A stretch of 51,285 nucleotides of DNA. Origin: a phage. Numbering within the stretch: position 1 is the stretch's first letter; each line of letters begins with the position of its first letter. Shown here piece after piece: positions 31,271 to 40,460 of this stretch. The position numbers and the translations under genes are program-made. A model generated the notes under the pieces. It was not told the DNA's origin. It did no database searches and saw nothing but the letters and a program-made list of their open reading frames with translations. The stretch lies in the sequence record PZ445413.1, one strand, 5' to 3'.

Positions 31271-31702
31271 ATGATTACTGATAAGGGAGATTACCTGGAG
31301 TATTACGAACGCGATCCGAGTGATACCAGGAAAGAGGATTCGCACCAGGTTGATTGCGTGGCGTGGTTGCGCCACCATTACCCGCAACTTTTATTTTGGC
31401 ACACGGTAAATGAGGGGCAAAAGACGATTACCAGCGCATTGAGGGATGAACAAGCCGGATTGCGAAAGGGTGTTTCTGATTTCGTTATCTTGATTGGTGA
31501 TCCGTCTTATAGCGATATGCCATACCCGTTTGCAGCTATTGAATTAAAGCGCGTGAACAAATCTGGAAAGGGAAAGGCATCACCTGTCAGCGACGAACAA
31601 AAGGCTTTTTTGCGTGATGTTCGCCAGCGCGGAGGATTTGCGGCTGTGGCTTATGGGTTCGAACAATTCAAACTGGCTATTGCGGATCTTTTCTATAAAT
31701 AG
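31271..31702 (+). CDS. VRR-NUC domain nuclease
   Basis: 143 aa; GVSDF...IELK (D...ExK) signature; overlaps helicase stop. Confidence 0.6.
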   Translation: MITDKGDYLEYYERDPSDTRKEDSHQVDCVAWLRHHYPQLLFWHTVNEGQKTITSALRDEQAGLRKGVSDFVILIGDPSYSDMPYPFAAIELKRVNKSGKGKASPVSDEQKAFLRDVRQRGGFAAVAYGFEQFKLAIADLFYK

Positions 31703-31743
31703 CATTTTTTGTTAAAACAGGCGCAACGGAATGCGCCATAATG
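31699..31743 (+). repeat. box cassette upstream of dam
   Basis: ATAGCATTTTTTGTTAAAAC with VRR-NUC stop TAG; hairpin ggcgca/tgcgcc; CATAAT. Confidence 0.5.
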
Positions 31744-31773: not shown

Positions 31774-32520
31774 ATGGCAAAAGATATTTTAGACAATGCA
31801 ACCATTGACGGCGTGGCGCAGGTTGACGAAATGGATTTTCACGAATTACAACACGGCAGATATTCAGATATTGCGTTGCGTTCTGGTGGTCATTATCAGC
31901 CAGTGAGGGAAAACACTTATTTCAAAGTTAGCGGCAACCGTTACGCCGGAAGTAATACGCCGGACGTTGTGCGCGACTTGTGGGCTACTCCTCGCGAGGT
32001 TGTAGAATATATGCAAGAGCGTTACGGTAAATATGATCTTGACGCGGCGGCAAGTGATGATAATAAAGTTTGCGATAAGTTTTACAGTAAGGAAACTAAC
32101 TGTTTAAAGCGCTGGTGGGGTTCCAAAAAACATGTTTGGCTTAATCCACCATACAGCAATCCAGATCCTTTTGTGTTAAAAGCAATTGAGCAAATGGAGC
32201 ACGATAACCAGATTGATATTTTATTACCAGCTGATAACTCAACAGCATGGTTTAAGGATGCACAGAAAAACGCGGCGGAAATTATCTGGATTACTGGCGA
32301 CACCTGGAAAGGAGAGGATGGGCGCGAATATTCAAGAACTGGACGCCTTGCCTTTATTTCTGGTCTTACTGGCGAACCAGTGCAAGGAAATAACAAAGGA
32401 AGTGTGATTTTTGTTATGCGCCAACTTAAAGAGGGTGAGCAACAGCAAACTCACTACGTTACAATTACTGAAATTTGCCCTTCTGTTAAGAATCGCAGAG
32501 CAAAGGCAAGGAGTTTTTAA
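31774..32520 (+). CDS. dam: DNA N6-adenine methyltransferase (phage Dam family)
   Basis: RBS gagga before ATG 31774; catalytic NPPY motif (WLNPPYSN); DLDAAAS motif. Confidence 0.75.
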   Translation: MAKDILDNATIDGVAQVDEMDFHELQHGRYSDIALRSGGHYQPVRENTYFKVSGNRYAGSNTPDVVRDLWATPREVVEYMQERYGKYDLDAAASDDNKVCDKFYSKETNCLKRWWGSKKHVWLNPPYSNPDPFVLKAIEQMEHDNQIDILLPADNSTAWFKDAQKNAAEIIWITGDTWKGEDGREYSRTGRLAFISGLTGEPVQGNNKGSVIFVMRQLKEGEQQQTHYVTITEICPSVKNRRAKARSF

Positions 32521-36781: not shown

Positions 36782-38362
36782 TCACCCCAATAAAGCAGGA
36801 TTCACAAAGACGCGCCCATTGATTACGCAAACATAGTTTCGATCTTCAAGCATTGGCAGTAAATTTTCCTCTATGCGCTTCATAATGCCAGCTTGCCCCA
36901 GGAATGGTTTAACCTTGCGTGCCGATTCGTAAATTGCGCGAACACTTAAGATCCCTTTGTTGGCTTTGCCGTGGCGCGTGATAATGTCGATTAACTTGCT
37001 CATTTCGGCATCATCGCCAGCGTGACCGGAAGCATTCGCCGCACTGATGTATGTTTTGCTCAACTCCTGGAACATGATCAAAGCCTCTTGCATAGTTTCC
37101 AGTTCAATTTCTCTCGACTTCTGAGGCGATCCGCTTTCATTGAACCAGTTGCGGATTACATGCAGAACTGATGCAATGCGAATAACTTGCTTATCCATTT
37201 TACCCAGCGCACCGCGCAACATGGTATGTGAATATTTTCCGCCGTCTGCAAGATCTGGCTCCATTTCCTGGCGAGCGCGGTTTAAGCATTTCATTGCGGA
37301 TTTGCTGATCTTCAATGAAACTTCCGCCTCAGTCATGATGTTATGAATAAGTTGATAATATTGCGCTTTCAGTGTCGGATCTACTGGCTCAAAGGTTGAA
37401 TCACCATCATCATCAATGAACGTGCGGCGACCTAAAAACGATTCTTCACGAACCAACAAGAAACGCTCACTAACACCGATACCGCGTGAACCAGCTTCCA
37501 TAATGCCGCTTATCGTTTCATCCTGAGCAATTACGCTCATGCAACCCAGCGCTTTAAAACTCATGTTGTTTTCTGCATTGGCACGAGCAATAGAAACGTG
37601 TCCCGCATCCCATGCTTTTAACACCAATTCGCTGTTAGTTTTGCGCTCGCTGTTGGCGTAGGTCAATCCCAATAAGCTGTTAATACTGGTTGCTTCATCC
37701 GAGATAACCGCAAAATTTCCCTGGCGGTTGTTGATTTTCGCCAAACCTTCTGGCGTGGTGTCGGAAACAGGAAAAACAACATCACACAGTTTTTGCAATT
37801 TCTCCTCTAATTCTTCCTTTTCCTCATACAGTGCCGCCATATCAGCGCCTGATCTCTCGCTTTTCATTTCTTTAGCAAGGCCAGCGAGTTTAGCCATAAT
37901 CTTTTTGCGCTCTTTCTTGCGTTGTTCGTTGATTCGCTCAACCTCGCAAACCATAGGAGCAATCGCCAGGCTGTTGATCGCAGATTTACCAGTTGACGGC
38001 GGCTGGCTTGTTACAACATACAGCGCCGTTGGCTGATCGGTTCCATGATAATCAACAGTAAAACGACCGAGCATTGCAGCAGACACGCAACCTACAAAGT
38101 GCATGTAGGCAGATGAAGCCGGAAACTGAACTGATTTTGCAATATTGCTTGAAAGTTTTCCTACAACGTCAATATCGTTTCCCAACGAAATTACAGGGTA
38201 GCGGTCATTGCCTGAATTAACATCTTGAACATCGCCCCAAAAGCTGGATGATTGGCGGTAGCCGTTTGCGTTGATTGCAACACGCAGAGGCGAAACGCCC
38301 AGGCTTTCGGCAGTGTCGATAATATCTTTTGGTGATAAGCGTTTTTGTTCAAAATCGTACAT
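36782..38362 (-). CDS. P-loop NTPase (putative replication-associated ATPase)
   Basis: Start at Met with strong RBS aaaggaga; Walker A PPSTGKS and Walker B VISDE. Confidence 0.5.
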   Translation of the reverse strand: MYDFEQKRLSPKDIIDTAESLGVSPLRVAINANGYRQSSSFWGDVQDVNSGNDRYPVISLGNDIDVVGKLSSNIAKSVQFPASSAYMHFVGCVSAAMLGRFTVDYHGTDQPTALYVVTSQPPSTGKSAINSLAIAPMVCEVERINEQRKKERKKIMAKLAGLAKEMKSERSGADMAALYEEKEELEEKLQKLCDVVFPVSDTTPEGLAKINNRQGNFAVISDEATSINSLLGLTYANSERKTNSELVLKAWDAGHVSIARANAENNMSFKALGCMSVIAQDETISGIMEAGSRGIGVSERFLLVREESFLGRRTFIDDDGDSTFEPVDPTLKAQYYQLIHNIMTEAEVSLKISKSAMKCLNRARQEMEPDLADGGKYSHTMLRGALGKMDKQVIRIASVLHVIRNWFNESGSPQKSREIELETMQEALIMFQELSKTYISAANASGHAGDDAEMSKLIDIITRHGKANKGILSVRAIYESARKVKPFLGQAGIMKRIEENLLPMLEDRNYVCVINGRVFVNPALLG

Positions 38363-38378
38363 CTGAAAATCTCCTTTC

Positions 38379-38435
38379 TTGTTGCCGCTAATTATAACGG
38401 CAACAATACTACCCTGTTTTAACAAAAAGTGCTAT
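38379..38435 (-). repeat. box cassette with TATAAT in hairpin loop (minus strand)
   Basis: minus ATAGCACTTTTTGTTAAAAC then ttgttgccg-TTATAATTAG-cggcaacaa then aaaggaga-ATG. Confidence 0.55.
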
Positions 38436-38680
38436 TTGATCCGCTCTATGCGAGCCATTAGTTTTCCGGTCAGTGAGCTAACGCATTCAGCCGTAACGCT
38501 ATCTATTCGCTCAAAAGGTAACGATTGGCGGTAATTGTGTCCGATCTGCCATTTGCCGCCAACAACCTTAATTGGCTTGATAATGTCGCCAACTTTCATG
38601 CAGGAAGTTTCGCCATCTATGACTTTATAGCGCCATTCCTTTTGCACGTCGCCAACGCCCAAATAACGCTTTTCACTCAT
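38432..38680 (-). CDS. small protein, paralog-family member
   Basis: 82 aa; ATGA overlap with upstream gene; stop TAG inside box. Confidence 0.4.
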   Translation of the reverse strand: MSEKRYLGVGDVQKEWRYKVIDGETSCMKVGDIIKPIKVVGGKWQIGHNYRQSLPFERIDSVTAECVSSLTGKLMARIERIK

Positions 38681-39096
38681 GAATATTTCGCCTCAAACAG
38701 ATAAGCACCACCAGCGGCAGAGAATCCGACCTCCTCCCGGTAAAGCGTCAAGCGGTCGCCGTCCTCGTCGAATACATAACCAGCAACGCCACCCAGCACG
38801 CGCCCTTGCTCGATCTGGTAGCGCTTGCCAGCTTTGAAGGTTTTCTTGATCTGCATTGAGTGATTTACCCAAGTGCATTTGATCGTTTTGGTTTTTAACT
38901 CAACGAATCTTGCAGCGATGCAACCTTTTGATACGCAAGCAATCTCGCCGCAAACACCAACGGCCAGGAAAATTTTTTCCTTGCCTTTGCCGATAGAAAT
39001 ATTGCCTTCATCATCAACGCGTGCTGAATACAGGCGATTTTCAATGAAAGATTCGGTGATGGTTGATGTGCATTTGAGTTTGATTGTCTTAGCCAT
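38677..39096 (-). CDS. paralog-family protein with internal tandem duplication
   Basis: 139 aa; two copies of K-x-K-C...G-K-x-Y module; RBS aaaggagc. Confidence 0.45.
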   Translation of the reverse strand: MAKTIKLKCTSTITESFIENRLYSARVDDEGNISIGKGKEKIFLAVGVCGEIACVSKGCIAARFVELKTKTIKCTWVNHSMQIKKTFKAGKRYQIEQGRVLGGVAGYVFDEDGDRLTLYREEVGFSAAGGAYLFEAKYS

Positions 39097-39124: not shown

Positions 39125-39172
39125 TTGCATTATGCCAGGCTTTTACACCTGGCTTTTAACAAAAAGTGCTAT
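39125..39172 (-). repeat. box cassette (minus strand)
   Basis: minus ATAGCACTTTTTGTTAAAAGCC; hairpin gccagg/cctggc; CATAAT; RBS aaaggagc. Confidence 0.5.
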
Positions 39173-39864
39173 TTTGAATTAAAGATCATGACGGCGCGCG
39201 CAAAGCCGCGAGGGGTAAGTGAGCGCAATTGCTTTGTCCTGGCAGACTTTCCGCCTAAATACTTCCACGCCCAAAAGAAACCGATATTGATCGGGCCTGG
39301 TACTTTATCAGGCATTACAAAACCGTTACCGCACCAAATGCAAGTTTTCTTTGTGTACCCGTCGAAAGCTGGCATTTTTGGATGATAAGGCTTTTCATCC
39401 TCTCGCATGTATCCGCCGTATTCGAACGGGTGAAAGTAATGGTTTGGTTTGCGCCATTTAGTTGACAGAAGCCCCACGGGATTTTCCACCATCCAGGGGC
39501 AACCATAGCGATTGCCTAACGCCTCAACCAGTTTTGCATTACTGACAGCCAGATCAACAGCGTCCTCGTTGCGCTCATGCTTGCGCCCACTATGCGCTAA
39601 CTCAGTGCATGACGGGAAAGCAAAAATAATGTCAGGCTTGCCGATTACCTTTTGCTGGTTCCCTGATAGGTAAGCCACCGAGCCAGCCGGATCAAACGTT
39701 TCATCAATCCAGGCATTCACATAATGCAGGTTTTCATGCTGCATCTTGATTTCGTATTCGCCGTGATCCGCTGTATCAGCATTGAAACAGAAAACAGTGT
39801 GACCAGCTTTCGCCCAATCCAGGCCCATAATGCCGGAGCCGTCAAACAGTGACCAAATAACCAT
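39169..39864 (-). CDS. DNA (cytosine-5) methyltransferase-like protein (divergent)
   Basis: 231 aa; motif I-like LFDGSGIMG; motif IV-like FPSCTELAHSGRK (PSC in place of PCQ); motif VI-like MVENPVG; RBS gagggtga; stop TAG inside box. Confidence 0.4.
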   Translation of the reverse strand: MVIWSLFDGSGIMGLDWAKAGHTVFCFNADTADHGEYEIKMQHENLHYVNAWIDETFDPAGSVAYLSGNQQKVIGKPDIIFAFPSCTELAHSGRKHERNEDAVDLAVSNAKLVEALGNRYGCPWMVENPVGLLSTKWRKPNHYFHPFEYGGYMREDEKPYHPKMPAFDGYTKKTCIWCGNGFVMPDKVPGPINIGFFWAWKYLGGKSARTKQLRSLTPRGFARAVMIFNSK

Positions 39865-39873
39865 AATTCACCC

Positions 39874-40098
39874 TCAGAATGGAAAACAACGCTTGCATGA
39901 TGGATCGAAATTGCAGCCGCAATCGTTAATGATTGTTGTCGGATCTGCAAGAATAGCGCCACATTCTTGATCCATGTCCATTGCACCCAACGCATCATCA
40001 AGGCTGATTAATTTATACGCAACCTCTAACGCAGCCTCTTTGTTTAGTCCAGCCGCCTCCGCTTCATGCAGTCGCGCAAAGAAACCATCTTGAGCCAT
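39874..40098 (-). CDS. hypothetical protein
   Basis: 74 aa; RBS gaggtga. Confidence 0.4.
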   Translation of the reverse strand: MAQDGFFARLHEAEAAGLNKEAALEVAYKLISLDDALGAMDMDQECGAILADPTTIINDCGCNFDPSCKRCFPF

Positions 40099-40160
40099 TT
40101 AATTTCACCTCGCAATTATTGTTGGGCGGCGCAAAATCCGCCCTTTGAACCAATCAGGAA

Positions 40161-40382
40161 TCAGAACCATTTTTCAATCAAGAAAGACAGATCATCAATC
40201 ATCGCGTAAGCATCGCTTTCCGTCATGCGGCGAATCTTTCCGCCTGGGTGCTCGCCTACCGCGTAGCCTGTTTTGATTTTGGTAATCGTCAACTGATGGA
40301 AACCAGAAGCGCGATCCATTTTGAGCACCGCTTTACCGTTTGCTTTGACCAGCTTCATGATTGATTCAGTTTTGATTTTCAT
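40161..40382 (-). CDS. small hypothetical protein
   Basis: 73 aa; preceded on minus strand by box + hairpin containing TGgTATAAT + RBS. Confidence 0.4.
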   Translation of the reverse strand: MKIKTESIMKLVKANGKAVLKMDRASGFHQLTITKIKTGYAVGEHPGGKIRRMTESDAYAMIDDLSFLIEKWF

Positions 40383-40411: not shown

Positions 40412-40460
40412 GCGCCCATTATACCAGGGCGCGTGATTTCGTTTTAACAAAAAGTGCTAT
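40412..40460 (-). repeat. box cassette with extended -10 in hairpin loop (minus strand)
   Basis: minus ATAGCACTTTTTGTTAAAAC then gcgccc-TGGTATAAT-gggcgc. Confidence 0.55.

Follow-up and report, generated by a model that had tools for sequence, protein, structure and literature searches.

The stretch of phage DNA analyzed here (sequence record PZ445413.1; 51,285 nucleotides [nt], hereafter the window) carries an open reading frame (ORF) at 39169-39864 on the minus strand, with an ATG start at 39864, a TAG stop at 39169 and a predicted product of 231 amino acids (aa). An initial annotation, made from the letters alone, had described a divergent C5-methyltransferase-like gene on the basis of three segments, LFDGSGIMG, FPSCTELAHSGRK and MVENPVG, all of which are present in the translation. 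Our analysis makes it very likely that the ORF encodes an active orphan DNA C5-methyltransferase that is dependent on S-adenosylmethionine (AdoMet), belongs to a minimal phage Dcm-like family (PHROG 757) and methylates phage DNA, probably at CCWGG. The gene and its motifs are listed below. Residue numbers refer to the full-length ORF. Alignments A1 and A2, like the structural model, derive from 39169-39861 and lack Met1; their numbering therefore runs one residue lower (C85, E126 and K171 for C86, E127 and K172).

39169..39864, minus strand: Dcm-like minimal DNA cytosine-C5 methyltransferase gene (231 aa; ORF and translation)
39832..39846, minus strand: motif I, F7-D8-G9-S10-G11, an FxGxG-type AdoMet-binding loop (DGSG invariant in A1)
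39604..39618, minus strand: motif IV, F83-P84-S85-C86-T87 in FPSCTELAHSGRK (C86 is the predicted catalytic nucleophile)
39472..39486, minus strand: motif VI, E127-N128-P129-V130-G131, ENV-type (E127 predicted to protonate cytosine N3)
39343..39357, minus strand: Y170-T171-K172-K173-T174, a Y-x-K-x-T segment (Y, K and T invariant in A2)
39190..39225, minus strand: fused motif IX/X-like segment R214-SLTPRGFARA-V225 (nearly invariant; C-terminal helix in the model)

The protein belongs to a phage methyltransferase family

Family membership, fold and motif equivalence were established in this analysis. Escherichia phage vB_EcoS_W011D (MK778457; Drexlerviridae, Tempevirinae, Changchunvirus) shares 99.0% identity with a 3-kb stretch surrounding the gene, and the 231-aa protein is 99.1% identical to W011D gp46, a "putative cytosine DNA methylase" ("DNA methyltransferase" in RefSeq). 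PHROG 757, "DNA methyltransferase," was matched across residues 1-229 with an E value of 5.9e-81. Matches to the protein were found by tblastn in 1504 phage records, among them Drexlerviridae, Dhillonvirus, Phapecoctavirus, other large myoviruses, phiKO2 and Klebsiella weberviruses, as well as Vibrio, Shewanella and Arthrobacter phages. A search of 5.8 billion proteins returned 2259 homologues; several are named "DNA cytosine methyltransferase" by NCBI, and none of the 2259 carries a precomputed Pfam domain. When 1.84 billion cluster representatives were searched with a profile, 1870 clusters were matched at E ≤ 1e-3 and 773 at E ≤ 1e-10. Because the family members among the matches listed in that search are mostly 200 to 260 aa long, the small size of the protein is the family norm and not a truncation.

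Among the matched records, 37 are labeled "Campylobacter phage" (one is MG065658 C7, of 134.9 kb, with C. jejuni as host) and contain a homologue that is ~48% identical. This homologue has the same score and identity as those in an Escherichia myovirus and in "Phage 203," which suggests that the Campylobacter records are mislabeled or contaminant.

Classical sequence databases were less responsive. Searched with the single protein, Pfam gave no match, with PF00145 missing even at E ≤ 10, and neither NCBIfam nor phmmer against the PDB gave a relevant match. Profiles of A1 and A2 found nothing significant among PDB sequences; the sole weak match was DNMT2 (E 0.75). When family members were searched individually, PF00145 was the only Pfam family matched by more than one of them (5 of 85 members at E ≤ 1; best E, 0.0067).

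Predicted fold and conserved motifs

An AlphaFold2 model of the protein had a mean predicted local distance difference test (pLDDT) score of 89.2 and a predicted template modeling (pTM) score of 0.89. In a Foldseek search with this model, 45 of the 47 matches at E ≤ 0.001 were DNMT3A/B, M.HaeIII, DNMT1 or plant MET1, and the best matches were the enzymes with the smallest target-recognition domains. As modeled, the protein has the three-dimensional fold of a C5-methyltransferase. In classical C5-methyltransferases, a mobile catalytic loop follows the Cys; the sole dip in the model (pLDDT 64) is the loop after the Cys. Motif I follows strand beta1 and is succeeded by a helix, ENP lies at the end of a beta strand, and the target-recognition interval (~145-205) consists of ~60 residues of loops and short helices.

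The motifs were conserved at two depths of the family. In 25 homologues with 59 to 87% identity, FDGSG, FP-x-CT, ENPVG and RSLTPRGFARAV were invariant or nearly so. In 85 members with 27 to 59% identity, C86, E127, P146, Y170, K172, T174, W177 and P185 were invariant, and F83, P84, G93, N128, P129, R214, S215, P218, G220 and A224 were at least 90% conserved. The family profile was also aligned with two classical enzymes, each as a single, pre-specified target. Against E. coli Dcm alone, FP-x-C-T..SG fell on GFPCQ..AG (Cys177) and ENP fell on ENV (p ~0.002), and against the N-terminal part of M.HhaI, FP-x-C fell on GFPCQ (Cys81; p ~0.005). The weak DNMT2 match aligned motifs I and IV the same way, setting motif I on LYSGIGG. 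An hhalign comparison of A1 with E. coli Dcm paired only the motif IX-like RSLTPRGFARAV with RRLTPRECARLM, at 1.8% probability. From the profile, DNMT2 and hhalign alignments, motifs I, IV, VI and IX stand in canonical order. The segments resembling motifs I, IV and VI that the initial annotation had picked out are therefore not chance look-alikes, being conserved in homologues and aligned by the profile with Dcm and M.HhaI.

A GN-type separate motif X was not recognizable. The segment Y170-T174 probably substitutes for motif VIII and contacts the substrate, and its lysines, K172 and K173, may be what replaces that motif functionally.

Set beside the classical enzymes of PF00145 (E. coli Dcm, M.HhaI and M.HaeIII), the window protein shares the predicted fold, the flexible loop after the Cys and the order of motifs I, IV, VI and a IX-like RxLTPRxxAR, but it does not reach any sequence threshold of Pfam, NCBIfam or the PDB, has ENP instead of ENV and does not conserve the Pro of the Pro-Cys pair, while the preceding Pro is invariant. 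The large target-recognition domain is cut down to short loops, and there is no QxRxR motif VIII. The initial annotation had remarked on the small size and on the lack of an obvious recognition domain. The size difference is real (231 aa versus 327 to 472 aa for M.HhaI and Dcm), but the domain has not vanished altogether, as a short segment (~145-205) remains in its place. The catalytic domains of DNMT3A and DNMT3B are likewise those of C5-methyltransferases with a very small target-recognition domain; these enzymes are eukaryotic and work as oligomers with regulatory domains, and their sequence identity to the phage protein is 11 to 14%.

The residue before the catalytic Cys varies in the family

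In the alignment to Dcm and M.HhaI, S85 takes the position that the canonical Pro has in Pro-Cys, and the invariant P84 is the residue before it. P84 corresponds to the first P of PPC in M.HaeIII and the DNMTs. In a set of 119 close homologues, residue 85 was D in 63, S in 39, P in 13 and Q in 4, while P84, C86 and E127 were each present in 119/119. An S form and a P form (P0048, P0078) are 87% identical, and D and S forms are up to 83% identical. Among representatives at 50% identity, the motif IV pattern was found in 127, with PPCT in 87/127 and PECT, PVCT, PDCT and PSCT as minorities. Named phages fell into three of these forms.

FPPCT: KarlJaspers, KarlBarth and nieznany
FPDCT: phiKO2
FPECT: a Vibrio phage

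On these alignments, the simplest reading is that position 85 is unconstrained in the family and that PPC is ancestral. Judged from this variation, Ser at position 85 would be no evidence of lost or altered chemistry. Pro-185 mutants of the EcoRII methyltransferase reportedly retain reduced activity, a point that carries no weight in the argument here. A literature search turned up no usable mutagenesis of the Pro in Pro-Cys.

An orthologue is linked to 5-methylcytosine formation and to retron Ec86

In the BASEL phage KarlJaspers (Bas06; MZ501090; Tempevirinae), bas06_0055 (711 bp) is annotated as a "Dcm-like C5 cytosine methyltransferase." Aligned full length with the window protein, its product shows 47% identity (BLASTP, E 6e-72); it also matches PHROG 757 at E 6e-86, and the gene is syntenic, with the same position relative to a DUF3987 helicase and a Dam-like gene in the same genome. 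The two proteins (231 aa in the window, 236 aa in KarlJaspers) have in common FDGSG, FP-x-CT, ENPVG, Y/F-x-KKT and RSLTPRGFARAV. They differ in the residue before the catalytic Cys, which is Pro there and Ser here, and in the loop at ~180-205, which is divergent.

Phage K42 is 95% identical to KarlJaspers, and its dcm gene is likewise 711 bp (bioRxiv 10.1101/2023.08.16.553469). According to that preprint, 4/4 escapers of the retron had lesions in or just upstream of the 711-bp dcm gene, and expression of K42 Dcm was toxic only with the retron present. LC-MS (liquid chromatography coupled to mass spectrometry) against a standard showed high 5-methylcytosine (5mC) on the msDNA (multicopy single-stranded DNA) of Dcm-expressing cells and low 5mC with a C82A/E128A/K175A/K176A mutant or the empty vector. 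Defense was abolished when CCTGG in the msDNA stem was changed, and such a Dcm was encoded by 34/35 retron-sensitive phages (10.1101/2023.08.16.553469). Later retron papers accept this work, which carries the citation Wang et al., Cell Rep 2024;43:114857.

Residues 82, 128, 175 and 176 of the KarlJaspers protein are C, E, K and K and align with C86, E127, K172 and K173 of the window protein. The Cys, the Glu and the first Lys of the set mutated in K42 are invariant in the 85 diverse members. Formation of 5mC and triggering of the retron are known from the 47%-identical orthologue; by analogy, the window protein would be expected to do both.

Although MG1655, the host used for the retron work, is dcm+, there was little 5mC on msDNA before the phage enzyme was expressed (10.1101/2023.08.16.553469). 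Host Dcm does not trigger Ec86, so the true site or substrate preference of the phage enzyme may differ from that of host Dcm.

Site statistics and the probable target

Counts of candidate sites are given as observed/expected under a zero-order model for the whole window (1-51285), with 50 kb of E. coli K-12 as the control.

CCSGG: window 1/68, E. coli control 96/111
GGWCC: window 1/79, E. coli control 25/105
RCCGGY: window 0/37, E. coli control 60/54
CCWGG: window 143/79, E. coli control 133/105
GATC: window 306/197, E. coli control 194/195

Hexamer palindromes are depleted in the window, where 23/64 are absent, compared with 4 in the E. coli control; GGNCC (6/147) and CTAG (20/197) are also scarce. 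CCNGG overall occurs as expected (144/147), and 143 of these 144 sites are CCWGG. The spared sites, CCWGG and GATC, are the targets expected of Dcm-type and Dam-type enzymes. The pattern in phage T1 is milder and different, with 11 hexamers absent and CCSGG at 65/59. T1 has Dam, and no Dcm-like gene was found in it by tblastn.

Since T1 keeps CCWGG (83/71) with no such gene, host Dcm could explain the tolerance of this site. Site statistics were therefore set aside as a test of specificity; with host Dcm as a confounder they are uninformative. A literature search turned up no usable methylome or site mapping for any family member. The target is probably CCWGG.

Genetic surroundings and the second methyltransferase

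Other features of the region and the second methyltransferase gene of the window are as follows.

36782-38425, minus strand: DUF3987 protein, 547 aa (Pfam DUF3987, E 1.9e-41; "helicase" in the W011D annotation)
38432-39096 and 39874-40382, minus strand: four small ORFs (82, 139, 74 and 73 aa) flanking the methyltransferase gene (hypothetical in W011D)
39868..39875, minus strand: Shine-Dalgarno-like GAGGGTGA (read directly from the sequence)
40418..40447, minus strand: promoter-like site TTAAAA-18-TATAAT with TG (consensus scan only)
31774..32520, plus strand: Dam-type N6-adenine DNA methyltransferase gene (Pfam PF05869, E 1.3e-62; NPPY in the translation)

The minus-strand block comprises, in order, the DUF3987 helicase, two small ORFs, the methyltransferase and further small ORFs. 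GAGGG lies 6 nt before the methyltransferase ATG and is overlapped by the stop codon of the preceding 74-aa ORF (39874-40098), so that the two genes are tightly packed. The promoter-like site precedes the small ORFs upstream of the methyltransferase gene and is a weak candidate for the start of a transcription unit; in the consensus scan, such sites were fewer in this region than in shuffled sequence. Just past the methyltransferase stop, at 39134-39153 on the minus strand, is a 6-bp stem (GCCAGG/CCTGGC) with an 8-nt loop and no T-run. Each arm of the stem holds a CCWGG site, and the structure may act as a weak terminator or as a hairpin that stabilizes RNA.

The DUF3987 helicase is a conserved upstream landmark of the Dcm-like gene in both W011D and KarlJaspers. 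In T1, the slot after the helicase is filled by an HNH endonuclease, without a methyltransferase. The four flanking ORFs had no Pfam match and are not kept beside the gene in other phage lineages. Gene neighbors differ across five phage lineages, among them phiKO2, a Phapecoctavirus (nieznany), a Vibrio phage (K437b) and a Dhillonvirus (KarlBarth). No nuclease partner was seen beside the gene in the other lineages examined, and here, in contrast to classical C5-methyltransferases, there is neither a partner restriction enzyme nor Vsr. Because neighbors vary across lineages and no nuclease partner accompanies the gene, the enzyme appears to work alone, as an orphan single-gene module. We also considered that the enzyme might have two subunits, with specificity residing in a separate protein, and rejected this because the neighboring genes are not conserved across lineages.

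The suggestion that the phage carries two DNA modification functions held up at the level of genes, the Dam gene being confirmed by its PF05869 match and its NPPY motif. It has an alternative in-frame ATG at 31741 and is annotated "Dam" in W011D, and a Dam and Dcm-like pair is annotated in KarlJaspers and KarlBarth as well. Like the Dcm-like gene, this T1-type Dam is an orphan phage methyltransferase with the same presumed anti-restriction logic; it belongs to an unrelated class (N6-adenine, NPPY) and is encoded separately in the same genome. Directly upstream of it is a 143-aa ORF (31271-31702, plus strand) that is hypothetical in W011D and KarlJaspers. By eye, its translation (...DCVAWLR...VSDFVIL...AIELKR...) resembles a VRR-NUC-type nuclease.

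Discussion

The fold search, the motif alignment and the homology to an experimentally tested phage Dcm agree that the window encodes a divergent C5-methyltransferase-like protein besides Dam, as initially proposed. In the mechanism that we favor, motif I (FDGSG) would bind AdoMet; C86, on the loop that follows strand beta4, would attack C6 of the flipped-out cytosine; and E127 of ENP would protonate N3. The Y170/K172/T174/W177 segment, together with the short loops at ~145-205, may stand in for motif VIII and the large target-recognition domain. As the phage replicates, the enzyme would methylate its DNA, with CCWGG the most probable site, and together with phage Dam (GATC) it would protect progeny DNA from restriction by keeping it fully modified. 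A side effect would be that the enzyme could trigger retron Ec86/Eco1 in hosts in which that retron is present. We infer that the S85 variant is active, that CCWGG is the target and that the role of the gene is anti-restriction.

Several points weigh against this interpretation. Pfam PF00145, NCBIfam and PDB sequences all failed to give the protein a significant match, which is one of the outcomes that the initial annotation had named as speaking against a C5-methyltransferase; the fold is nonetheless of the C5-methyltransferase type, and the missing matches reflect the divergence of the family and not the absence of that fold. The QxRxR of motif VIII is not recognizable, and no Arg is conserved between E127 and R214 in the 85 members. 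No experiment was found for this protein or for any S85 or D85 variant, and the tested orthologue has the canonical PPC. As for the target, T1 retains CCWGG without a Dcm-like gene, and the preprint reached CCWGG specificity by analogy and not by mapping (10.1101/2023.08.16.553469).

In one alternative, the protein, with almost no target-recognition domain, carries out the same DNA C5-methylation at a site other than CCWGG, whether different, shorter or structure dependent. The site of no family member has been mapped, the preprint altered only the CC of CCTGG in the msDNA, and the residues most divergent from KarlJaspers Dcm (~180-205) lie where a recognition domain would be. Pure isospecificity with Dcm also does not obviously explain why msDNA held little 5mC in dcm+ MG1655 before the phage enzyme was expressed. 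We nevertheless regard another site as unlikely. Of the GC-rich, 5-bp, palindrome-like sites, CCWGG alone has been spared in an otherwise purged genome; CCSGG, RCCGGY, CCATGG, CCCGGG and CCGCGG are absent or nearly so, which makes broad CC-type protection unlikely; and mutation of CCTGG in the msDNA abolished retron defense.

The altered PSC and the small size had initially been taken to suggest a noncanonical enzyme, a binding protein or a decoy. This idea was not supported by the comparison with the family, in which position 85 is free to vary, the first Pro, the catalytic Cys and the Glu are constant and the size is the norm. In its strongest form, the protein would be a catalytically dead, methyltransferase-derived DNA-binding protein or decoy, disabled by loss of the Pro. 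It is true that S85 replaces a Pro that is nearly universal in classical C5-methyltransferases and that Pfam is not matched, but C86, E127, P84 and the FDGSG loop, which a binder would not need, are invariant in the 119 close homologues. Moreover, S, D, Q and P forms interchange at up to 87% identity without other decay, and distant relatives are mostly PPC (87/127 with the motif pattern), the active K42 enzyme included, so that a dead protein appears very improbable. We give slightly less weight still to the same fold doing another job, namely transfer of a different group (e.g., carboxymethyl, as in PDB 8yf3) or DNMT2-like RNA methylation. DNMT2 was the only weak PDB sequence match of the family profile (E 0.75), but such matches score no better than ordinary DNA C5-methyltransferases, the orthologue gave 5mC on DNA by LC-MS against a standard, and no cofactor-synthesis genes are nearby.

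Returning to an active, minimal Dcm-like enzyme, a more speculative extension can be considered, which we hold to be doubtful. PHROG 757 enzymes could be the smallest natural DNA C5-methyltransferases, with a vestigial recognition domain and a dispensable Pro, and what they prefer as target or substrate, be it a site, a strand or a DNA structure, could differ from the preference of host Dcm. This difference, and not dose, would then let Ec86 tell phage methylation from self. If so, the switching of residue 85 among S, D, P and Q might serve to adjust activity or to escape such sensing by the retron.

The gene itself is annotated in a 99%-identical GenBank genome, the family is named in the BASEL annotations, and for an orthologue both biochemical and genetic evidence has been published. 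Since the family escapes Pfam and NCBIfam, automated pipelines often label its members "hypothetical protein." For the phage, possession of Dam together with a Dcm-like enzyme predicts resistance to GATC- and CCWGG-directed restriction and sensitivity to retron Ec86/Eco1.

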